Of a stretch of 64,000 bases of DNA, positions 3,010-51,182 are shown piece by piece (position 1 is the stretch's first letter; the number at the start of each line of letters is the position of its first letter). The stretch is taken from contig CAWGBN010000002.1 of assembly GCA_963820825.1 (NCBI GenBank), positions 160,001 through 224,000 on the forward strand. The letters are read 5' to 3'. This DNA comes from Vulcanimicrobiota bacterium. GTDB lineage: Bacteria; Vulcanimicrobiota; Vulcanimicrobiia; Vulcanimicrobiales; Vulcanimicrobiaceae. The notes under the pieces are model-generated. The model was not told where the DNA came from. It did not search any database and saw only the letters and a list, made by a program, of their open reading frames with translations. Position numbers and translations under genes: made by a program.

Positions 3010-3084
3010 TGGAGCCGTCGATGGGGATTGAACCCATGGCCTCGTCCTTACCAAGGACGTGCTCTACCACTGAGCTACGACGGC
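3010..3084 (-). tRNA. tRNA-Thr(GGU)
   Basis: Reverse complement GCCGTCGTAGCTCAGTGGTAGAGCACGTCCTTGGTAAGGACG...GTTCAATCCCCATCGACGGCTCCA; CCA encoded. Confidence 0.97.
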
Positions 3085-3190
3085 GCTTTTGGTCCGAGAG
3101 CGTTACTCCGCCGGCGGCTTCGGTCCCTACTGCAAGCTAGGGTGCCCCGGCTTACGGGGCGAAAACGCTTGCGATAGGAGGTTTTCTTTA

Positions 3191-3535
3191 ATGCTTCTTT
3201 CTTCCACGATGTTACGCCGGATGGGGATCGCCGTTGCCGCATTCGCGGTACTCGGCGCGACCGCGCTTCCGGGAGCGGCGCAGATGCGTCAGCAAATGGC
3301 CGACAAAGTCGCGACTCAGGCTGCCAACTCGTTCGTGAGCAAGATTAACGGCGAAAGCTGTTCCGATTTTGCAAATACGATGGCGCAGATGAAGCATAAG
3401 TCGGGCGCGACGCCGAGCCCGATGTCCGCGAAACTCAAGGGCAACTCGCAGGCGCGGACGGACTTCGTCAATATCGTCGCCGGGCCGTTGCTCAACAAGA
3501 TGATCGACTGCAACATGATGCCGGGAGGAATGTAG
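3191..3535 (+). CDS. Small secreted hypothetical protein (two Cys)
   Basis: AGGAGG RBS at 3176-3181 before ATG 3191; signal peptide; abuts next gene. Confidence 0.75.
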   Translation: MLLSSTMLRRMGIAVAAFAVLGATALPGAAQMRQQMADKVATQAANSFVSKINGESCSDFANTMAQMKHKSGATPSPMSAKLKGNSQARTDFVNIVAGPLLNKMIDCNMMPGGM

Positions 3536-3868
3536 ATGCGACGCGTTCTTCTCGCCGCGTTGCTTGCGTGCGTTCCGGCGATCGCCGTCGCGGCGGCGCT
3601 CGCGCCTTCGACGATTCTCGCGAATCCGTCGAGCTACGATGGAAAGAGCGTCACCGTCACCGGTAAGGTCGCGCACTTCCAATCCTCGAGCACGCCGATG
3701 GGTCCGGTTGCCGGATTTCAGCTCTGCGATTCCAAGTGCGTCGTGGTGATCGACAAAACGAATCAGTCGCGCAGCGACGGCGCGACCGCAACGGTCAGCG
3801 GCACCTTCCACGTCAGCTTCAAGGGTCCGCGAAAGACCTTCAGCAACGCCATCGTCGTCGGGCGATAG
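3536..3868 (+). CDS. Small secreted protein, probable OB-fold
   Basis: Signal peptide; ILANPSSYDGKSVTVTGKV...ATVSGTF pattern. Confidence 0.75.
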   Translation: MRRVLLAALLACVPAIAVAAALAPSTILANPSSYDGKSVTVTGKVAHFQSSSTPMGPVAGFQLCDSKCVVVIDKTNQSRSDGATATVSGTFHVSFKGPRKTFSNAIVVGR

Positions 3869-3871
3869 CGC

Positions 3872-4828
3872 TTAGCGGCTGGGGAGCGCGCTCACGGTAA
3901 CCCCGTAGAGCTCCTCCCCGTCGAAACGCGAGAGCTGGCCGACGGGATAGCCGCCGGATGGATAGTTCCAGAACCCGATCTTGTTAACGTTCTTCCCGGT
4001 GCCGAACGGCATGATCAGCCTCCCGCCGTTGAGCCAAAACTCGGCGCCCTCAGGCGGCTGCCGGACCGGGCCTTCGAGCGTCACGGTCTCCGCCAGCGTC
4101 GCAATCCTCTTCCGCGGCTCGATCTTGAGCCGATAGACGACGCCCGGAGAGGTGTAGTCGCCCACGGCGAGATCGGTGCCGTCCCATTGTATGTTTCCGG
4201 GCAACCCGATTGCCGCTTTGACGGCGAGCCGCACAAAGTGAACGCCGGCGTAGATGAGCTCGGAGAGCCGGAAGTGATCGCCGTCGTGCAGATGATAACC
4301 GTCGACGAAGAGATCGCCCTTCGCATCGTAGGCACATGCGAACGGATAGTCAACCGCAGCGGCATAGGTCTGCGGTTCGCCGCCGGCGGCCGGATAGATC
4401 ACCACCGTGGGCGGCTCGGTATTCACGACGGCAAGACTTCCGGTTAGAGGATCGACCGAACAGCCGCGCGGCTCGGCGTTGGGATCGTCGAGCACGTCGA
4501 TCGGCGTCGTACCACCGTGCGCGTACTCGACCACCTGATCGTGCCCGGCATTGAAGTTCATCACCCAGACGTTCCCGCTCGCGTCGCTGCAGAGCCCGAG
4601 CGGATATTTATCGTCGGCGAGCGTCTGAACGAGATCGCCCGCGGGATAGGTGAAGACGAAGATCTTGCCGGCCTTCCAATCGCTGGCGTAGAGCAGATCG
4701 CTGCTCGAGCTCGTTGCGGGAGCGGAGCGGCTCTGACTCGCTGCGATCTGCACCTGCGCTCCGGCGCATCCCGCGAGCACGAATGCGGCAGTGCTGACGT
4801 AGAGCGCATATCGCCTCACGCTGCGCAT
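3872..4828 (-). CDS. Lipoprotein with NHL/beta-propeller-like repeats
   Basis: Lipobox LAGC; repeated GLCSDASGNVWV / GCSVDPLTGSLAV / ACAYDAKGDLFV blades; start moved to ATG 4828 because the ORF-track start overlaps tRNA-Gly. Confidence 0.8.
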   Translation of the reverse strand: MRSVRRYALYVSTAAFVLAGCAGAQVQIAASQSRSAPATSSSSDLLYASDWKAGKIFVFTYPAGDLVQTLADDKYPLGLCSDASGNVWVMNFNAGHDQVVEYAHGGTTPIDVLDDPNAEPRGCSVDPLTGSLAVVNTEPPTVVIYPAAGGEPQTYAAAVDYPFACAYDAKGDLFVDGYHLHDGDHFRLSELIYAGVHFVRLAVKAAIGLPGNIQWDGTDLAVGDYTSPGVVYRLKIEPRKRIATLAETVTLEGPVRQPPEGAEFWLNGGRLIMPFGTGKNVNKIGFWNYPSGGYPVGQLSRFDGEELYGVTVSALPSR

Positions 4829-4858
4829 TTCGACACGGCTTACGGGTTTAACTAGCGA

Positions 4859-4932
4859 TGGAGCGGGCGGCGGGAATCGAACCCGCGACTCTTGCTTGGA
4901 AGGCAAGGGCATTACCACTATGCAACGCCCGC
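4859..4932 (-). tRNA. tRNA-Gly(UCC)
   Basis: GCGGGCGTTGCATAGTGGTAATGCCCTTGCCTTCCAAGCAAG...GGTTCGATTCCCGCCGCCCGCTCCA. Confidence 0.96.
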
Positions 4933-5007
4933 AACGCTCGGCGACCTCTTTACCGCAGCCGGTCGCGCAACACCTACGGCGCGGGGTAAAGCCGACGCGG
5001 GAATGTC

Positions 5008-6027
5008 CTAGGGGACGTAGTTGTTCGTGTCTACGGCACTGGACGGCAGCGTCAGGCCGTTGGCGGCGCCGAGCGTCGCGATGAGCGTGCCGCTCGGATA
5101 CTCGAGCACTTGGACGTCGCCGGCGCCGAGATCGGTCACGTAGGCTCGATTATTTCTCCGGTTGATCGTCACGTGGAAGGGATCGTAATAGCCCGACCCC
5201 AGCGTGTGCGTAATCGTCTGATAGGGCGGCGCAATGACGTCTACGGTCGCCGAGAGCTGATCGCAGACGATGAGATCCTTCTGCTTATCGAGCGCCATCC
5301 CGCCGATGAACCCGAGCGGCAGCGGAAGTAAGATTCCGTTGCAGCCCCTCAAACCGTGCTGATACTCGGTAATGTATCCAAGCGAACCGGAGTTATAGCC
5401 GAGGAAGACGTCGCCGCGCTGATCGACGGCAACGCCCTCGGCCGCACCGCCCGGCGAGCAGTGTGCGATCACCGTGTTACTCTTTTGCGCGTACTCGTTG
5501 ACGAAACCGTGACCGTGCGGATAGGCATAGTCGGCTTCATAGACGTTGCCGTTGAAATCGGTCGTCACAGCGACCGGATCCATCATGCGAGCGTTATACG
5601 TAAAGGTCAGCTGCGAGGGCGGTTGGTACTGCGTGATGTCGTTACTCGCGTAGTTTGCCACGTACAGGCCGAAGGTGTCGAGCCAATTGCCGTCGGGAGC
5701 ACTGATCCCGTCGGTGATCTCTCCCTTGTTCGCCCAGGAGTTATTCTTGAGGATCTCAACGGCGTTGCTGGTAAAATCGTCGACGAAGAGCGACGCGCCG
5801 GCGTTCGGCATCACACCGGCTCGCGAAGCCGTTCCCAGCCGTACGAGCGCGAGAAACTTCGGAGCGACGCCGGAACGAGCGGCATCGGCGAGCGCACCCG
5901 GCGCACCAACACGCGCACTCTGCGCCGCGGAGCCGGTCCATTGCGTAGCGGCGCCCGAGCAGCCCGCAAGGACGGCGAAGGCGGTTATTGAAGCCGCGGC
6001 TACGACGGAAAATGAATACTTCTGCAC
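5008..6027 (-). CDS. Lipoprotein with NHL/beta-propeller-like repeats
   Basis: GTG 6027 with AGGAG RBS; lipobox LAGC; blades PVAVTTDFNGNVYEAD, GVAVDQRGDVF, GMALDKQKDLIVCD. Confidence 0.8.
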   Translation of the reverse strand: MQKYSFSVVAAASITAFAVLAGCSGAATQWTGSAAQSARVGAPGALADAARSGVAPKFLALVRLGTASRAGVMPNAGASLFVDDFTSNAVEILKNNSWANKGEITDGISAPDGNWLDTFGLYVANYASNDITQYQPPSQLTFTYNARMMDPVAVTTDFNGNVYEADYAYPHGHGFVNEYAQKSNTVIAHCSPGGAAEGVAVDQRGDVFLGYNSGSLGYITEYQHGLRGCNGILLPLPLGFIGGMALDKQKDLIVCDQLSATVDVIAPPYQTITHTLGSGYYDPFHVTINRRNNRAYVTDLGAGDVQVLEYPSGTLIATLGAANGLTLPSSAVDTNNYVP

Positions 6028-6114
6028 GAGATAACTCCTGCAAGCTTCAGACCGCCCGGAAACTACCCGGCGGGCTGCGATGCGTTCGTCTTTGCGCGAA
6101 GAGCTCCTCGGTCG

Positions 6115-6660
6115 ATGCCCGCGTTTGAGGTGCGCCCCGCGTCGCGCGACGACGTGGAGACCATCCGCCAAATCTATAACGAAGGCGTCGAGGATCGCGT
6201 CGCGACGCTCGATCGCGAGCCGAAATCGCCCGATGAGATGGCGCAATGGTGGGCGGATCATGACGAGCGCCATGCGGTGCTCGTTGCGCTCGATGCAGGC
6301 GAGGTCGTCGGTTGGGCCTCGCTCAATCGGTTCTCTGCGCGCTGCGCGCACGCGAACATTGCCGACCTCTCCGTCTACGTCAAGCGCAGCGAACGCGGCC
6401 GGGGCGTCGGTCGCGAGTTGCTGAAGCGGCTCGTGGAACGCGCGACGCGCGAGGGTTTTCATAAAATCGTTCTTCACGCATTGGACTGCAACGAATCCGG
6501 AAAGCGGCTCTACCGCGGCAGCGGATTCATCGAGGTCGGCGTCTTCAGAGAACATGGGATGATCGACGGAGCATACGTGGACGTCGTCGCGATGGAGCGG
6601 CTCCTGCGATCGTCTTCGCCGGAGGCGGATCTGGGCAGGGCTGGATTCGAACCAGCGTAG
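6115..6660 (+). CDS. GNAT N-acetyltransferase (phosphinothricin/arsinothricin ArsN1-like)
   Basis: IYNEGVEDRVATL, VVGWASL, DLSVYV..RGRGVG, EVGVFREHG..DVVAME. Confidence 0.88.
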   Translation: MPAFEVRPASRDDVETIRQIYNEGVEDRVATLDREPKSPDEMAQWWADHDERHAVLVALDAGEVVGWASLNRFSARCAHANIADLSVYVKRSERGRGVGRELLKRLVERATREGFHKIVLHALDCNESGKRLYRGSGFIEVGVFREHGMIDGAYVDVVAMERLLRSSSPEADLGRAGFEPA

Positions 6661-6716
6661 CGCCTTCGCGCGCCAGATTTACAGTCTGGTGCCATTAACC
6701 ACTCGGCCACCTACCC
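6632..6716 (-). tRNA. tRNA-Tyr(GUA), CCA not encoded
   Basis: GGGTAGGTGGCCGAGTGGTTAATGGCACCAGACTGTAAATCTGG-long V arm-GCTGGTTCGAATCCAGCCCTGCCCA. Confidence 0.96.
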
Positions 6717-6738
6717 ATAGGCCTTTCGCCTTTTCCCG

Positions 6739-6767
6739 TTGTTCTTGGGGGCTCAGCAGGGTACGAT
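6739..6767 (+). promoter_or_regulatory. Candidate sigma70 promoter
   Basis: TTGTTC-17 bp-TACGAT upstream of a foldable leader and the 6910 lipoprotein. Confidence 0.4.
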
Positions 6768-6909
6768 AGGGAGGCTACGGGCTCCTCGGGTTGGTGATGA
6801 CGGTCACCCGCAAAACCTCTCCTCATCGACTTCTCATGTGACCCGCCGTTCGAGTAGCCTACCATGGGAACTGTAGCAAACTCGTCTACGACCCTCGGGA
6901 GTACCTAGG

Positions 6910-7812
6910 ATGGCTCGCTTAGCAGCCCTTGCGGTTGCCGCCCTGACCGGTCTCCTCCTCGCCGGATGCAGCGGGGGTAGTTTTGCTCAGGCCGGGCTCT
7001 CACTGCCCGCCGCCTCAGGCGATGGACTTCAGACCGTGAGCGACGCAGCCGATGCCCTCGACGGGCACCGCAGCTCCGCGACGGCCGACGCCAAGGCCGC
7101 GATCGCCGTGACCGATGCGCTCGGCTCGTTCGTCCGCGACATTGCTGCGGCCCAGCGTTCGTTCGGCCAGGCGGGCACGCAACAGGCGAGGCTTCGCTCG
7201 AATCTCCACTCGATTCGGCAGTACACCGTCGAGGTCAACGGCCGGCGGATCGCCGCCGGATCGGAGCTCATCATGCGGTCGGGGTTGGGCGAGTACTGCC
7301 AGAACTCCGCGGGCTACAGCGTCAGCGGCATTCCTTCGCTCGACGCGACCTTCGGGTGGCAGAGCGGCGCGCTGATCGGCGGCTCCCGGAAGACCGATTC
7401 GCGCGGGGGATCGACCTGGTCGGCAAATGCCAGCGGCGCCGTGGTCCAGGGTGCGATCGGTACCCTATCGATCGCTCGCGGGGGCGCGAGCGCGTCGTGC
7501 CCGATGAGCGCACCGGCCTTCGTTCTGAAGGGCGGGACGGCAGAGAACGCATTTTCCCTTCCGCTCTCGATGGCATTCCGTCGCGGCGACCTGAGCAATC
7601 TCAGCGTCGTCAACGGCCGTTTCGCAAACGGCGAGAACCTCGAGGTCACGACGCGGCCGAACCATCAGCCAGCCGAGGTCGACGGCGTCGTCGCGAAGGG
7701 GCGCACGCAAGTTGCGACCTTCCGCGCCAACGCGTCGGGTTACGGAACGCTGACGATCACCAGTACCGGCGCGCAATACGTCATCGCCGACTGGATCGTC
7801 GTCGGAACTTAA
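6910..7812 (+). CDS. Hypothetical lipoprotein
   Basis: Lipobox LAGC, GGGAG RBS, 300 aa Gly/Ser/Ala-rich. Confidence 0.8.
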   Translation: MARLAALAVAALTGLLLAGCSGGSFAQAGLSLPAASGDGLQTVSDAADALDGHRSSATADAKAAIAVTDALGSFVRDIAAAQRSFGQAGTQQARLRSNLHSIRQYTVEVNGRRIAAGSELIMRSGLGEYCQNSAGYSVSGIPSLDATFGWQSGALIGGSRKTDSRGGSTWSANASGAVVQGAIGTLSIARGGASASCPMSAPAFVLKGGTAENAFSLPLSMAFRRGDLSNLSVVNGRFANGENLEVTTRPNHQPAEVDGVVAKGRTQVATFRANASGYGTLTITSTGAQYVIADWIVVGT

Positions 7813-7830
7813 ACTCCTAACGGCACCGCC

Positions 7831-8187
7831 TTAGTCAGGCGCGACGCACGCGACGCGCTTGCCGGAGGCAAGCGTTACGTGTTTGGCCATGACGGTACTC
7901 TTCGAGGCGTTTACCGTCACGCTCGCACTCTTGCTGCCGCTGGCAAGCATAATCGTTTGGGCGTTGGGGTTTGCATCGTCGATGTCGGAATCGACGCCCG
8001 GGCCCTCGGCCACGCGCAGGTGTCCCAGCGTCAGTGAGATCGCCGCGAGCGTCCCGGCCGGACACGACGAAAGCGCCTGCTTAAAGCCGATGCTCGACGG
8101 CTGCACCGTCACGCTCGACGAGGCGGCGGTGGCACCCAGCCCGACGACGAGCGATAGAACGGCAAACGGTCTTATATCCATCTTCAT
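7831..8187 (-). CDS. Small secreted hypothetical protein
   Basis: MKMDIRPFAVLSLVVGLGATAAS signal peptide; two Cys. Confidence 0.65.
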   Translation of the reverse strand: MKMDIRPFAVLSLVVGLGATAASSSVTVQPSSIGFKQALSSCPAGTLAAISLTLGHLRVAEGPGVDSDIDDANPNAQTIMLASGSKSASVTVNASKSTVMAKHVTLASGKRVACVAPD

Positions 8188-8244
8188 AACGATGCAGTGC
8201 TTTTGCGCGTCACTCCGAGGGCCCTCTCGCCGGGCTTCGAAGTC

Positions 8245-9036
8245 ATGCGGGTGTTTCTTACGCAAGAACTGCATGCACTCATTACGCGCGCCGAGATCGC
8301 CGGGATCCGAAGCAACGTTGCATCGATCCAACGACTCTACCCGCAGACGCATGCCGAGAGCATCGACGTCGCCGACGGAGTCGCCGCCTTTGCCGGCATC
8401 GATTCGCCTCTTTCGAAAGCCTTCGGCATCGGCGCGTTCGAGCCCGTAACCGGCGAGCAGATCGCGAGCGTTTCGGAGTTCTTCGAATCGCGTAACGTCG
8501 TGCCGCGCGTTTTCGTGACGCCGCTGAGCGCCCCGACGCTGGCCCGGGCATTGGCCGCCGCCGGCTATGCGCCCGTCGAGTACGACAGCGTAATGGTCGC
8601 CGTCGCGCCGGAACGTCACGGTCATCGCGACGCTCGAATCGCCGTTGCTGCTGATTTAAAGGCTTGGGCTCGCGCTTCCGTTGAGGGCTTCATCGCGCGA
8701 GACCGCATACATGACGACGCGCTCGCCCGGATCATCGGATCGTCGCAGGACGTCGTTCCACTCGAAGCACGCCAGAACGGTGAAATCGTCGCTACGGCGG
8801 CGTACAGCATGCGCGGCGAGTGTTCCGGGCTCTTCGCCGGATCGACGCTGCGCGAGTTTCGCAACCGCGGTTGGCAGCTCGCCATGATACGCGATCGCAT
8901 CGCTCGCGCACGCGACGCGGGCGCACGCGTTATATTTGCCGCCACAGCCCCCGCCAGCGTTTCCGAGCGCAACTTTCATCGCGCCGGTTTCGTCACGCTG
9001 TACACGCGTGCACGATGGGATCGCATACACGCGTAA
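8245..9036 (+). CDS. GNAT-family acetyltransferase
   Basis: FAGIDSPLSKAFGIG N-domain; GSTLREFRNRGWQ and SVSERNFHRAGF acetyl-CoA motifs. Confidence 0.85.
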   Translation: MRVFLTQELHALITRAEIAGIRSNVASIQRLYPQTHAESIDVADGVAAFAGIDSPLSKAFGIGAFEPVTGEQIASVSEFFESRNVVPRVFVTPLSAPTLARALAAAGYAPVEYDSVMVAVAPERHGHRDARIAVAADLKAWARASVEGFIARDRIHDDALARIIGSSQDVVPLEARQNGEIVATAAYSMRGECSGLFAGSTLREFRNRGWQLAMIRDRIARARDAGARVIFAATAPASVSERNFHRAGFVTLYTRARWDRIHA

Positions 9037-9042
9037 ACCACA

Positions 9043-9071
9043 CTGCCATACATATGGCATAGCGGTATCAT
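9043..9071 (+). promoter_or_regulatory. Candidate promoter with overlapping palindrome upstream of the HNH gene
   Basis: CTGCCA-17 bp-TATCAT; perfect inverted repeat TGCCATA-CA-TATGGCA at 9044-9059. Confidence 0.45.
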
Positions 9072-9082
9072 AGTATTGGCGC

Positions 9083-9592
9083 ATGAATGCAAGGAAGTTT
9101 CGCGGCTGGTGCCTGACTGATTGCGGTAACGCGATTAAACACGGGGCAACAAAATATTGCTCATTTAGATGCCTACAAGTGGCACGCAGTCAGGAACGCG
9201 TGCAGACCCTGGAGTCCGGGTTTTACGTTGCCCTTCAGGCAACGCGGTTTCTTCGCAGATACTTGATCGAACGTCTCGGCGAGAAGCGCACACGGTGCGG
9301 CTGGGCCGAGCGACATCCCACAACCAGAAACGTTCCTATCGAAGTCGAACACATCGACGGAAACTGGCAAAACTATAGGCTCGAAAATCTGACCTTGCTC
9401 TGCCCGAATTGTCATGCTCTAACCCCGACGTTCCGCAGCCTCAACCGGGGTCGAGGCAGGGCTCATCGACTCGGTGGCAGAGCGAACCCGATTAACGCTA
9501 GCGGCCAACCTGAAAGGCGGCGCGAGCGGGCGTCTAGGCAAAAGGTGTTCGAGGGACCCCTGATGCAACTGAATCTACTACCGCCGACGTAG
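9083..9592 (+). CDS. HNH endonuclease (Zn-finger type), possibly degenerate
   Basis: KYCSFRC; EVEHIDGNWQNYRLENLTLLCPNCHALTPT HNH motif; visibly AT-richer than flanks. Confidence 0.88.
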   Translation: MNARKFRGWCLTDCGNAIKHGATKYCSFRCLQVARSQERVQTLESGFYVALQATRFLRRYLIERLGEKRTRCGWAERHPTTRNVPIEVEHIDGNWQNYRLENLTLLCPNCHALTPTFRSLNRGRGRAHRLGGRANPINASGQPERRRERASRQKVFEGPLMQLNLLPPT

Positions 9593-9667
9593 CCAAGTGG
9601 TTGAAGGCAATTGATTTGTAATCAATTCCCAGAAATGGGCACGTGGGTTCGAATCCCACCGTCGGCT
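9583..9667 (+). tRNA. tRNA-Thr(UGU) with atypical long variable arm; CCA not encoded
   Basis: GCCGACG/CGTCGGC acceptor, GCC-AAGTGGTTGAA-GGC D arm, ATTGA-TTTGTAA-TCAAT anticodon arm, CCCA-GAAA-TGGG V arm, GTGGG-TTCGAAT-CCCAC T arm. Confidence 0.9.
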
Positions 9668-9689
9668 CCGTTCGTTTTTTTGAAAGTAC

Positions 9690-10079
9690 ATGCAAAACGT
9701 AAATCCAAAGTGGTTGAAGTCGGGGCTCGTGCTCGTATGCGAGCGCTGCTTCAAAGAGCGTATCCCCGAAGAAGATCCCGACGCCGCCGAACGGATCGGC
9801 GACTTCCATCTTCGCAACTGGTTAAAAGATCGGCTCAAAGAAGACGGGCGATGGGGACCGATTCGTGCGATCAGTACGAGCTGCATGGACGTCTGTGCAC
9901 GCGGGCGGGTAACGCTCTGCATCGAGCCGCAAGACGGCGAAACGACGGTTATGGTCGTCGACCCCGTCGCCGATCGCGAAGCGATCTATCGCGAGATCGT
10001 CGCGCGGCTAAACGGTGGCGACAACGGCGCGTACCAGGGCGGCGCGGGCGAGGAGCCGAGTCGAGTCGAGCGTCGGTAA
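9690..10079 (+). CDS. Thioredoxin-like (2Fe-2S) ferredoxin-domain protein
   Basis: VLVCERC ... TSCMDVC cysteine pattern. Confidence 0.7.
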   Translation: MQNVNPKWLKSGLVLVCERCFKERIPEEDPDAAERIGDFHLRNWLKDRLKEDGRWGPIRAISTSCMDVCARGRVTLCIEPQDGETTVMVVDPVADREAIYREIVARLNGGDNGAYQGGAGEEPSRVERR

Positions 10080-10709
10080 CGATGAGTTCTCGTCGTTGAC
10101 GATGAGCGGGATCTCGGTGCAGCCGAGAACGACCGCGTCGCAGCCGGCGTCCTTCATCCGCTCGATCACGCGTTGGAAATACGCGGCCGCTTCCGGCTTG
10201 AAGGCGCCGTAAACCAAGTCGTCCATGATGATTCGGTTGATTTCAGCGCGCTCGTCCGAAGTCGGAAGCACGTACTCCCTTCCACGCGCCGACAACTTCT
10301 CCGGATAGACGTCGCTTTCGACGAGCCAGCGAGTCCCGGTCAGCCCAACGCGCCGAAAGCCGCGGCGCACCGCTTCGTCGGCGACGACATCGGCGATATG
10401 CAGCCACGGCAGCGGGGACCGCGATTCGATTGGCGGCAGCGCTTGGTGGATCGTATTGTCGGGACAGATGAGAAAGTCGGCGCCGATCGCCGCCAGCTTG
10501 CGGGCGGAATCCAGCATGATCTGGCCGACGCCCGGCCAGTCATCGCGATCCATGCACGCTTCGTACTCCGCGAACGACGGCGAGTGCATTGAAATCTCCG
10601 GGTGCGCGTGCGCGCCCAACAACTGGACACCTTCCGAACAAATCGTTTGGTAGCAGAGCGCGGCGCCCGGGGCCGAACACGCCACGATGCCGATATGGAG
10701 CGGTTTAAT
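10008..10709 (-). CDS. Aspartate/glutamate racemase family protein (start probably ATT 10709; first canonical start GTG 10685)
   Basis: HIGIVACSAPGAALCY, ICPDNTIH, VLGCTEIPL, LDSTRLLA. Confidence 0.9.
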   Translation of the reverse strand: MKPLHIGIVACSAPGAALCYQTICSEGVQLLGAHAHPEISMHSPSFAEYEACMDRDDWPGVGQIMLDSARKLAAIGADFLICPDNTIHQALPPIESRSPLPWLHIADVVADEAVRRGFRRVGLTGTRWLVESDVYPEKLSARGREYVLPTSDERAEINRIIMDDLVYGAFKPEAAAYFQRVIERMKDAGCDAVVLGCTEIPLIVNDENSSLPTLDSTRLLARAALVRAVVATV

Positions 10710-49346: not shown

Positions 49347-51182
49347 CTAGTGCGCCAGCGCCTGGGCCCCGAGCGTTTGAACGTTCACGCCGTTCGCGGT
49401 CAGGATCGTACCTTGAACGCGCTGCAGCTCGACGATCGACTGATCTAGCTGCGTCTGCGCCTGCAGTTCGAGTCCGCGCGCCTGCTCGAGCTGCACTTGA
49501 CGCTTCAGCACGAGATACGTGGTCGATTCGCCGCGATGAAACTGACGGACTTCGCTTGCGTAGACCGCTTCGGCGGCGGCGCGCGAGCGGCGCGCCGCGG
49601 TGAGCTTCGAGAGTGCGGTCCTATACGACTGAAGCGCGTTGCGAGCCTCGGCGGCAATTCGCTCCTGCACGCCCTGCATCAAAACCGCGGCTTGCGTCGA
49701 CTCCTCGCTCGCGACGCCGCGCATCCCACGCGCAAGGCTTCCTTGAATCGGGTAGCCGACGACCAGCGCGAAGTTGAACGCCGGAAAGTATCCGGCCCAC
49801 ATGTTGTGATACGCGTAGGGCATCGAGCCTTGCGTGTTCGGCGGCGGGGTCGGACACGAGTAGAGCTTGTTGACGGCATAGCACTCGTTGAGCAGAAACG
49901 TCGGCACCGGCGCGAGGATCCCGGCGAAACCGTTGCTCAGGTATTGAACCTGGACGTCGGCTTGCGGCAGCGATTGATTTGCGGCAAAGGCTCGATCGAT
50001 ATCGGCCGCAAGCCGCTTATCCTCGGCTTGACGGACCTCGGGGCGATCCCGTTGCCCCTCGGCGACAATCTGCGCCAAATCGCCGACGCTCGGAAGCTGC
50101 TGCACCGACGTCGACGGCACGAGATTCGCGGTCCAGATCGGATCGCCGGGATCGGCGACCACGAGCGTCTTGAGCTGCACCTGAAGCTGCGCGACGGTCT
50201 GCAGCGCCGAATAGACGTTGTCTTGAAAGTTCGAGACCTGCGTCTGCGACTCGACCGCATCGATCGGAGCGGACGCGCCGCGCCGGGCGAGACGAACGTT
50301 GCTCCGCTGCTGCGCGATCGCTTCTTGTAGCGCCTCCTCTTGGATCGCGACGTTGCGCCAAGCGGCGACGAGGTTCCAATAGGCGTCTTCGACCTGCGAG
50401 AGCGTGTTCGAGGCATCGATGAGCGCCTGTGCCGCACGAGCGTCTTCGTTAACGAAGGCGAGCTTGAGCTGGCGTTTGCCGGCGTTCATCCCGGCATTCT
50501 TGAGCAGCGGCTGCGTCACCGCGAGATTCAGCGTGGCGACGTAGTACGGGTTGAACGCGTTGAAGACCGTGTTGTTGTAGGTGCGCATCTGCTGGATGCC
50601 CGCCTGATACGTCATGCCGTTCTCGGTCTGTCCGCCGACGCCGTACTGAAACGTGGATTGATGCTGGATGATGTTACCGGGTCCGCTGGTGTAGATCGGC
50701 CCAGGAGTCGCCGGACCCGTCGTATACCTGCCGATCGGACCTGGGCCGGCCTCAAACGCATTCTGCGGCGGCTGCACCGAGAAACTCGAGGAGGGTTTGA
50801 GCTGAAGCTGCAGATCGTACTGCCCCTTGGTCGCGACGATCGTATAGTGTGCGATCCGGACGTTCGAGGCGGATACCGCCAGATTCGGATTCTTGAGCAG
50901 CGCCATCGCGATGGCATCTTGAAGCGCGATACCGACAAACGGCTGCGCGGTGACGCCGACAATCTGCGCCGCGCTCGGTGCGACTTCCGGTGCGCGGTAG
51001 CCGGGCGCGACGCTCGGCACGACCGGAAAGTTCGGCGAGGGAATCGCCGTCGGCAACGTCGCGCGCGACGGAAGCGGCTCGAGCTGAGCCGAGGTCGGCG
51101 CTACCGGCAATGCGGCGAGCACGACGGCGGCGATCGCAATGCCCGCAGGAATCAGCCGGGCCTTGACCTGCATGAATCTCAA
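49347..51182 (-). CDS. TolC-family outer membrane factor, paralogue 2
   Basis: Same motifs; TTGA overlap with paralogue 1 (alternative ATG 51173). Confidence 0.92.
   Translation of the reverse strand: MRFMQVKARLIPAGIAIAAVVLAALPVAPTSAQLEPLPSRATLPTAIPSPNFPVVPSVAPGYRAPEVAPSAAQIVGVTAQPFVGIALQDAIAMALLKNPNLAVSASNVRIAHYTIVATKGQYDLQLQLKPSSSFSVQPPQNAFEAGPGPIGRYTTGPATPGPIYTSGPGNIIQHQSTFQYGVGGQTENGMTYQAGIQQMRTYNNTVFNAFNPYYVATLNLAVTQPLLKNAGMNAGKRQLKLAFVNEDARAAQALIDASNTLSQVEDAYWNLVAAWRNVAIQEEALQEAIAQQRSNVRLARRGASAPIDAVESQTQVSNFQDNVYSALQTVAQLQVQLKTLVVADPGDPIWTANLVPSTSVQQLPSVGDLAQIVAEGQRDRPEVRQAEDKRLAADIDRAFAANQSLPQADVQVQYLSNGFAGILAPVPTFLLNECYAVNKLYSCPTPPPNTQGSMPYAYHNMWAGYFPAFNFALVVGYPIQGSLARGMRGVASEESTQAAVLMQGVQERIAAEARNALQSYRTALSKLTAARRSRAAAEAVYASEVRQFHRGESTTYLVLKRQVQLEQARGLELQAQTQLDQSIVELQRVQGTILTANGVNVQTLGAQALAH

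Follow-up and report, generated by a model that had tools for sequence, protein, structure and literature searches.

A tRNA-Thr(UGU) gene with class II architecture in a soil bacterium of the Eremiobacterota

The window analysed here is a stretch of 64,000 nucleotides (nt) from the genome of a soil bacterium of the Eremiobacterota (contig CAWGBN010000002.1, positions 160,001 to 224,000 of the forward strand). At positions 9583..9667 (+) it carries a gene for tRNA-Thr(UGU) (tRNA positions 1-73) that has class II architecture, with a long variable arm. We conclude that its product very probably is a working threonine tRNA for ACA, and by wobble for ACG, with a core rebuilt to class II. A functional non-canonical threonine tRNA had been one of two possibilities raised when the letters of the window alone were inspected (hereafter, the sequence-only reading). 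It is now supported by the absence of any other such gene among those found in the genome, by covariation in the variable arm, by the threonine identity set, and by the rate at which ACA aligns with threonine, which is close to that of ACT.

A tRNA-Thr(UGU) gene built as a class II tRNA

The sequence-only reading had described an 85-nt cloverleaf with perfectly paired acceptor, anticodon and T stems and the anticodon UGU, and this description was confirmed by ARAGORN, by Rfam, by the predicted fold and by the sequence itself. ARAGORN called a tRNA-Thr(tgt) at 9583-9669. The Rfam tRNA model (RF00005) matched 9583-9667 over its full length (1-71) with 66.8 bits, against a threshold of 29 bits, and its alignment placed 13 extra bases as an insertion within the variable region. 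The minimum-free-energy fold was -33.1 kcal/mol (z = -3.45), which none of 200 shuffled sequences equalled. The acceptor stem has 7/7 pairs (9583-9589 with 9660-9666), the anticodon stem 5/5 (9610-9614 with 9622-9626) and the T stem 5/5 (9643-9647 with 9655-9659); a TTCRANY-type T loop and G18-G19 are also present, as is usual for a tRNA. The anticodon TGT, placed by the sequence and by ARAGORN, occupies 9617..9619 in the loop 9615-9621, and the discriminator U73 is at 9667. The CCA end is not encoded, the discriminator being followed by CCG.

The remaining parts of the molecule are of the class II kind. The D arm (9592..9608) has a stem of 3 base pairs (bp), GCC/GGC (9592-9594 with 9606-9608), an A13/A22 mismatch, and a loop of 11 nt in which G18-G19 is followed by two extra bases. 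This class II D-arm type is also that of the Ser and Tyr tRNAs of the same genome; the D arm differs from that of the Tyr tRNA at 4 of 20 positions and from that of Ser(CGA) at 3 of 20. The variable region (9627..9642) comprises 16 nt, namely 1 nt, CCCA, GAAA, TGGG and 3 nt, and forms a hairpin (9628-9631 with 9636-9639) with a 4-bp CCCA/TGGG stem and a GAAA loop, followed 3′ by three unpaired bases. The D stem, the hairpin and the likeness of the arm to that of the nearby tRNA-Tyr, which has the same 1+4+4+4+3 arrangement, had all been read correctly from the letters. The layout of the arm is Tyr-like, and the neighbouring tRNA-Tyr is one candidate for its source. The gene thus shows a variable region of at least 10 nt with a stem-loop, a 3-bp D stem, a 13/22 mismatch and an enlarged D loop. 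It departs from class II only in its isotype: with the anticodon UGU and the identity set of threonine, it falls outside Leu, Ser, bacterial Tyr and Sec.

The assembly that contains the gene amounts to 2.98 Mb in 9 contigs, with 64% G+C. ARAGORN called 47 tRNA genes genome-wide, among which the long-arm gene is the only Thr(tgt); the Thr(ggt) and Thr(cgt) genes are ordinary class I genes. A looser pattern, extending from the anticodon loop to the T loop, was run on this genome and on four near-complete class II congeners. It gave 18 matches in the five genomes: 5 were the class II Thr(UGU) genes themselves, 1 was a tRNA-Asn 3′ fragment, 5 were tested and are not tRNAs, and 7 were judged by eye only; the reversed pattern, used as a control, gave 0-3 matches per genome. 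Neither the 47 calls nor the looser pattern, with that share of judgements by eye, yielded another Thr(UGU) gene. The codon that the gene would serve occurs 1490 times in the filtered open reading frames (ORFs) of the genome and accounts for 2.6% of Thr codons.

The acceptor is of the threonine type, as had been noted: G1-C72, C2-G71 and U73 are the same as in the Thr(GGU) gene of the window, and together with G35 and U36 they make up the Thr identity set. The Thr(CGU) gene elsewhere in the genome has an acceptor stem identical to that of the long-arm gene, and also U73. The pairs G1-C72 and C2-G71 and the bases G35 and U36 are reportedly the Thr determinants named in work with E. coli and T. 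thermophilus. In the available part of one source, threonine identity is assigned to acceptor-stem pairs and anticodon bases, with a minor role for position 73 (PMC9976931).

The other possibility raised in the sequence-only reading was mischarging with Ser or Leu. If the long arm made the tRNA a substrate of the seryl-, tyrosyl- or leucyl-tRNA synthetase (SerRS, TyrRS, LeuRS), some or all ACA codons would be translated as Ser, Tyr or Leu. The arm itself speaks for this, since serine identity is described as depending primarily on the long variable arm (PMC9976931, available part), and its layout equals that of the tRNA-Tyr of the genome. The rest of the molecule speaks against it. U73 takes the place of the G73 of tRNA-Ser and of the A73 of tRNA-Leu and tRNA-Tyr, and 50 of 51 distinct genomic sequences of long-arm Thr(UGU) have retained it. 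According to the same partial source (PMC9976931), C2-G71 is an antideterminant for E. coli SerRS, G2-C71 being conserved in bacterial tRNA-Ser, while LeuRS requires A73 and TyrRS requires A73 and U35; the gene has C2-G71, and G35 in place of U35. The arm is not of the Ser type either: in the Ser tRNAs of the genome a 6-bp arm leaves one 3′ base unpaired, against 4 bp and three unpaired bases here. By these features the gene is not a tRNA-Ser, a tRNA-Tyr or a tRNA-Leu.

The meaning of ACA was then read from protein alignments. ORFs with high third-position G+C from the whole genome were paired by reciprocal best hits with ORFs of two other genomes, 400 kb from each: a class I congener gave 258 pairs (mean identity 74%) and a class-level relative 195 (50%). 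Relative to the congener, ACA stood opposite Thr in 52 of 87 cases (30 ACG, 13 ACA, 6 ACC, 3 ACT) and opposite Ser in 6; the Thr shares of ACC, ACG and ACT were 71%, 68% and 53%. With the class-level relative, 17 of 46 ACA codons were opposite Thr and 5 opposite Ser, and the Thr shares were 47% for ACC and 50% for ACT. The Ser share opposite ACA was in the same range as that of the other Thr codons. ACA behaves as a rare Thr codon, like ACT, with no sign of Ser, Leu or Tyr. Given the Thr identity set and the alignment of ACA with Thr, mischarging with Ser or Leu is unsupported, and we consider it very improbable that ACA is read as Ser, Tyr or Leu.

Some results weigh against our conclusion. 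The Thr share at ACA (60%) is below those of ACC and ACG (68-71%), though above that of ACT (53%), and the ACA counts are low, at 87 and 46 codons. With a genome completeness of 85%, there is room for a second Thr(UGU) gene. The sole thrS of the genome (G000:C5:192655-194254) spans at least three alternating frames, and the threonyl-tRNA synthetase (ThrRS) sequences that were examined are those of congeners only. The broken frames of thrS are probably assembly indels and not the mark of a pseudogene, because the assembly carries indel errors that change the frame in 21 of 297 orthologues examined. The ThrRS of congeners has the SAD domain, the class II core and the anticodon-binding domain, and no TGS domain. 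Between two class II and two class I congeners it is gap-free internally, with 83-85% identity; no indel and no obvious class-specific block pointed to co-adaptation of the enzyme, four sequences being too few to exclude point changes.

We infer that the gene is expressed, that the arm is retained in the mature RNA, and that ThrRS charges it. A search for sequencing runs over 9000-10400 of the window listed none, which counts neither for nor against expression. Charging would proceed through the usual determinants, that is the first two acceptor pairs, G35 and U36. The core would have been remade as class II, with the 3-bp D stem, the 13/22 mismatch, the larger D loop and a hairpin oriented as in tRNA-Tyr. 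The variable arm would then be a structural part of this rebuilt core, held by selection for pairing, and would leave the amino acid unchanged. If so, the arm is tolerated by ThrRS and by the rest of the translation machinery, and SerRS has to exclude Thr(UGU) by other features.

Class II and class I alleles in the family, and long-arm genes elsewhere

When the 85 bases were used as a BLAST query, 22 of 24 congeners had a match and none of 16 genomes from other families did. ARAGORN called a Thr(tgt) at 23 of the 24 matched congener loci, long in 19 cases and of 75-77 nt in four; the 24th locus is a tRNA-Leu whose similarity is confined to the T arm. Near-identical tRNA-Thr(UGU) genes are present on public contigs of Candidatus Cybelea, Candidatus Baltobacteraceae and Eremiobacterota/Vulcanimicrobiota.

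From 47 class II sequences, 32 distinct ones whose arms have 14 or 16 nt were taken for covariation analysis, which kept the arm columns aligned. In these, 99.7% of cells were paired, compared with 82.1% in shuffles, and the covariation score was 0.427 versus 0.112, a value reached by 0 of 500 shuffles. The variable-arm helix showed changes on both sides at 4/4 pairs, with 100% of cells paired. Neither G15 nor the C at the end of the arm varies in the 47 class II sequences, a pattern that would fit a 15-48 tertiary pair between them. Long arm and D-arm type occur together, 48 of the 51 distinct long-arm genomic sequences having the 3-bp D stem. These data bear on the idea that the gene is silent, that its hairpin is removed after transcription, or that it has a non-ribosomal role. 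All stems, the arm included, are maintained by compensatory change across dozens of species, and the gene is the only one found able to read ACA, a codon that occurs 1490 times in the filtered ORFs; moreover, we know of no bacterial machinery for removing a variable-arm hairpin. We regard this idea as exceedingly improbable.

Two pattern surveys were made to define the distribution in the phylum and in the family. Any Thr(UGU) beginning with GCYG was admitted by the first pattern, which matched in 275 of 401 genomes sampled across the phylum; among the matches listed (150 of 279), the 44 from other families were all class I. In the family, where a variable region of at least 9 nt was demanded, extended-arm Thr(UGU) was found in 121 of 348 genomes (75 of 186 high-quality genomes) and in 23 of 78 genera, with 56 of 90 genomes in the genus of the window. 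Of the 121 positive genomes, G227, G373 and G420 carry an unpublished flag. The pattern scans miss tRNAs with other acceptor starts, and related genomes are non-independent samples.

The genus of the window also contains at least 20 canonical class I Thr(UGU) genes and at least four "hybrids" with a 3-bp D arm and a 5-nt variable loop, among the matches listed. The hybrids may be class II genes that have lost the hairpin. A conserved ORF of 129 amino acids (aa), which in the window lies at 9690..10079 (+), served as a synteny marker for the locus; it gave no match to Pfam, PHROG or NCBIfam. By tblastx and tblastn, this same small gene was found directly downstream of class II, class I and hybrid Thr(UGU) genes, so that the three forms are alleles of one locus. 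The acceptor stem is common to class I and class II alleles, and the anticodon and T arms are common to some of them. A tree of the downstream protein (20 rows, 112 columns) lacked resolution; it required 4 class changes, although a single clade of the rows that are not class II was not rejected (approximately unbiased test, p = 0.195). As several genera contain both forms, the distribution suggests more than one class switch, or recombination. Class I and class II alleles at one locus within one genus amount to a natural experiment on tRNA class change.

A second Thr(UGU) form was also encountered, in which the D arm is of the GCNCAGYGGCGACNGC type and the variable loop, rich in A and C, has 7-12 nt and is unpaired. 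It is present at loci L044 and L075, in five family genomes (G058, G079, G254, G370, G386), and in G606 and five other Kiritimatiellae, and hence is common to two phyla; many viral contigs have it as well.

Beyond the family, a scan for long-arm Thr tRNAs over the genomes of 185,579 species gave at least 120 loci. Among the matches listed, at least 50 are bacterial long-arm Thr genes, and the others are archaeal intron-bearing tRNAs and chance overlaps. Those outside the Eremiobacterota, again among the matches listed, comprise seven Kiritimatiellae records, a metagenome-assembled genome (MAG) of the Rhodospirillales, a genome of the candidate phyla radiation, a betaproteobacterial tRNA array, and a Gemmatimonadaceae MAG with a long-arm Thr(GGU). 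In those genomes that were checked, no gene other than the long-arm one matched its anticodon. The Gemmatimonadaceae gene (L039, 301-384) has the anticodon GGU and A73, and the same genome has a class I Thr(UGU). In one order of the Kiritimatiellae, 53 of 151 genomes matched the pattern; nine have the class II gene and six have a form with a 3-bp D arm and a 7-nt loop.

The long-arm Thr(UGU) pattern also matched in 54 uncultured viral contigs, mostly inside tRNA arrays. The viral scans were selected for long arms. Together with two GenBank phages, the contigs gave 37 distinct sequences with arms of at least 12 nt, 34 of them with the 3-bp D stem. Across positions 8 to 44 one viral gene differs from the tRNA of the window by one base, and the Kiritimatiellae class II gene resembles two other viral genes. 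The isolated phages with the long-arm form are Pseudomonas phage HPP-Temi and Sinorhizobium phage Phosso, in both of which it is annotated as plain tRNA-Thr. In the viral arrays (L226, L195, L241, L244, L214) long-arm genes of other anticodons were seen too: Met (85 nt), Cys (86 nt), Ile(tat) (91 nt) and Thr(cgt) (83 nt). The gene order of array L226 is that of the betaproteobacterial MAG locus (L046). Beside the class II tRNA-Thr of HPP-Temi stands an 87-nt gene annotated as tRNA-Phe (L247, 694-780); its body is of class II type, and its anticodon loop, as read here, has no more than about five bases.

Surroundings of the gene and candidate causes of the arm

Why the core should have been rebuilt is a separate matter, and the causes considered here are compatible with charging by threonine. 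One is that the class II core shields the tRNA from a tRNA-targeting nuclease or toxin, having arisen as counter-defence in phage arrays and been fixed later in hosts. Evasion of a nuclease had also been suggested in passing in the sequence-only reading. As far as the accessible text of a preprint goes (bioRxiv 10.1101/2025.02.04.636281), the AriB nuclease of PARIS cleaves E. coli tRNA-Thr(UGU) between positions 40 and 41, a second AriB subunit is modelled on the D loop, and tRNA variants of phage T5, Thr(UGU) among them, restore infection under PARIS. The isoacceptor is therefore a published target of such an enzyme, with the D loop as a modelled contact, and a rebuilt D arm and core could block an AriB-type enzyme. 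The many long-arm Thr(UGU) genes of viral contigs, most of them in arrays, the two isolated phages, and the viral gene that is one base from the tRNA of the window between positions 8 and 44 are in line with this. Against it, the tRNA of the window retains the stretch U36-A-A-U-C-A41 described in that text at the AriB cut site, so that the simpler escape was not taken; a host that protected its own tRNA would disarm its own abortive-infection system; and similar D arms may merely be what any class II core needs. On balance a nuclease shield seems to us possible but unlikely. The frequency of the gene in phage arrays, and the choice of the same tRNA by a defence nuclease, nevertheless make structural escape from tRNA-targeting immunity directly testable.

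The second candidate cause involves the ORF upstream. This ORF (9083..9592, +; 169 aa) is HNH endonuclease-like, with a PHROG match (E 2.1e-18) and a weak Pfam HNH match, and its 3′ end lies within the first bases of the tRNA gene. A homologue is found upstream of tRNA-Thr(UGU) in 12 of 23 congener loci, and is thus conserved but patchy. It was seen at 0 of 11 loci from lineages in which only class I was observed, and at 6 of 9 class I or hybrid loci in two genera that also hold class II. A paralogue stands just upstream of tRNA-Gln(CUG) (G000:C2:81200-81760), and does so in two congeners as well (G153, G006). In their arrangement, the HNH genes 5′ of Thr(UGU) and of Gln(CUG) resemble those of phage tRNA arrays. 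For the ORF of the window, 469 homologues are recorded under the names HNH endonuclease or McrA. An HNH gene unrelated to that of the window overlaps the class II tRNA-Thr of phage HPP-Temi. From such an arrangement one may imagine that the HNH gene drives the patchy spread by intron-less homing, with co-conversion of the tRNA allele. Within the clade, however, about half of the class II loci lack the HNH gene and most class I loci examined have it, and identity to the HNH copy of the window does not separate class I from class II loci. Furthermore, the association at the level of clades may stem from a single event, and no cleavage site is known. Spread driven by the HNH gene is in our opinion doubtful.

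Nuclease escape thus takes a small part of the probability and HNH-driven spread a smaller one; the larger part we leave to drift or to causes not seen. Under drift, a tRNA that serves so small a share of Thr codons may tolerate replacement. A combined history, in which a class II Thr(UGU) evolved in phage arrays against tRNases and was copied into the thrU locus of Baltobacteraceae and of some Kiritimatiellae, possibly with the aid of an HNH gene, can be proposed only tentatively, and we hold it to be rather improbable. If it were true, whole bacterial lineages would decode ACA with a phage-style, nuclease-resistant tRNA.

Five tRNA genes were called in the window by ARAGORN. Besides the long-arm gene, ARAGORN and Rfam agree on tRNA-Thr(GGU) at 3013..3084 (-), a class I gene whose G1-C72, C2-G71 and U73 were read from the sequence; on tRNA-Gly(UCC) at 4862..4932 (-); and on tRNA-Tyr(GUA) at 6632..6716 (-), an ordinary class II gene with the variable-arm layout described above. 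The fifth call, a 77-nt tRNA-Val(cac) at 49349-49425 (+) with its anticodon at position 38, had no Rfam tRNA match at the gathering score and is probably spurious. The Thr(GGU), Gly, Tyr and Thr(UGU) genes are dispersed across 6.7 kb (3010-9669), the intervening ORFs being of no known family. In relatives (L261, L005) the four genes are contiguous, and in the window Thr(UGU) is on the opposite strand.

Elsewhere in the genome, a tRNA-Asn 3′ half (G000:C2:340403-340442, -) lies 11 kb from an intact tRNA-Asn (C2:351715-351790) and is the signature of an element integrated into the tRNA-Asn gene. A tRNA-Sec(tca) gene is present at G000:C6:467130-467223, from which the host probably makes selenoproteins. 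Other long ARAGORN calls (Ala 95 nt, Arg 86, Pro 91, Gly 90) are presumed false positives.

Comparison with known tRNAs

In the available parts of the literature consulted, long variable arms are restricted to Leu, Ser, bacterial Tyr and Sec tRNAs, nev-tRNAs excepted (PMC7609411, PMC4810241, PMC4033280, PMC9976931, PMC13433404, PMC11415595). Textbooks and reviews treat the long arm as an identity mark, above all for SerRS, and Thr(UGU) contradicts this restriction: here a threonine tRNA with a full class II core, the only reader of ACA found, is present in over a hundred related genomes and is kept by selection in a similar number of species. The sequence-only reading had allowed that long-arm Thr(UGU) might prove common in the lineage and already catalogued. 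It is common; as to a catalogue, no description of a class II tRNA-Thr, or of long-armed phage tRNAs of class I isotypes, was found in the literature searched, which did not cover subscription journals. In the text of the Codetta screen (PMC8629427) the word ACA is absent. The long-arm Thr genes in public records, some of them annotated as tRNA-Thr, appear to be undescribed, and annotation by arm length alone would mislabel them.

Two kinds of known non-canonical tRNA were considered and rejected as identities for the gene. The nematode nev-tRNAs are class II tRNAs with Gly or Ile anticodons (PMC3333845, PMC4033280, available parts) and resemble it in joining a class II body to the anticodon of a class I family. 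By the same partial accounts they are Leu-type in identity, charged with Leu, weakly expressed and accompanied by normal tRNAs, whereas the long-arm Thr(UGU) has Thr identity and is the sole decoder found, with ACA acting as Thr. A mistranslating tRNA of the nev type is contradicted by the Thr-type acceptor and discriminator and by the behaviour of ACA. The allo-tRNAs and (8/4)/(9/3) tRNAs are likewise non-canonical, bacterial or phage-borne, mined from sequences and often long-armed, as the available text of PMC5389517 presents them. An allo-tRNA requires an 8/4 or 9/3 branch, and Thr(UGU) has the standard 7/5 branch.

The tRNA-Thr(UGU) of phage T5 is the same isoacceptor and is a phage-borne variant of a host tRNA, which fits the many long-arm copies in phages. 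It differs in that its substitutions lie near the cut site, and the accessible preprint text does not contain the word "variable". A further counterpart is the canonical tRNA-Thr(UGU) (thrU), whose gene we take to belong to a thrU-tyrU-glyT-thrT cluster. The long-arm gene shares with it the anticodon, the discriminator, the acceptor stem of the class I congeners, the locus, and the Tyr, Gly and Thr(GGU) neighbours; it is unlike it in the D stem (3 bp instead of 4), in a larger D loop, and in the variable region, which is of 16 nt with a hairpin instead of 5 nt.

In build, another counterpart is bacterial tRNA-Tyr, with the same D-arm type and the same arm layout of 1 nt, 4 bp, a 4-nt loop and 3 unpaired bases; the long-arm Thr(UGU) differs from it in having a Thr acceptor, a Thr anticodon, and U and not A as discriminator. 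As a precedent, tRNA-Tyr belongs to class II in Bacteria but to class I in the Archaea and Eukarya (PMC9976931, available part). That ancient split is the only other case in which a tRNA class change is known, whereas the class switch of Thr(UGU) is recent and polymorphic within one genus.

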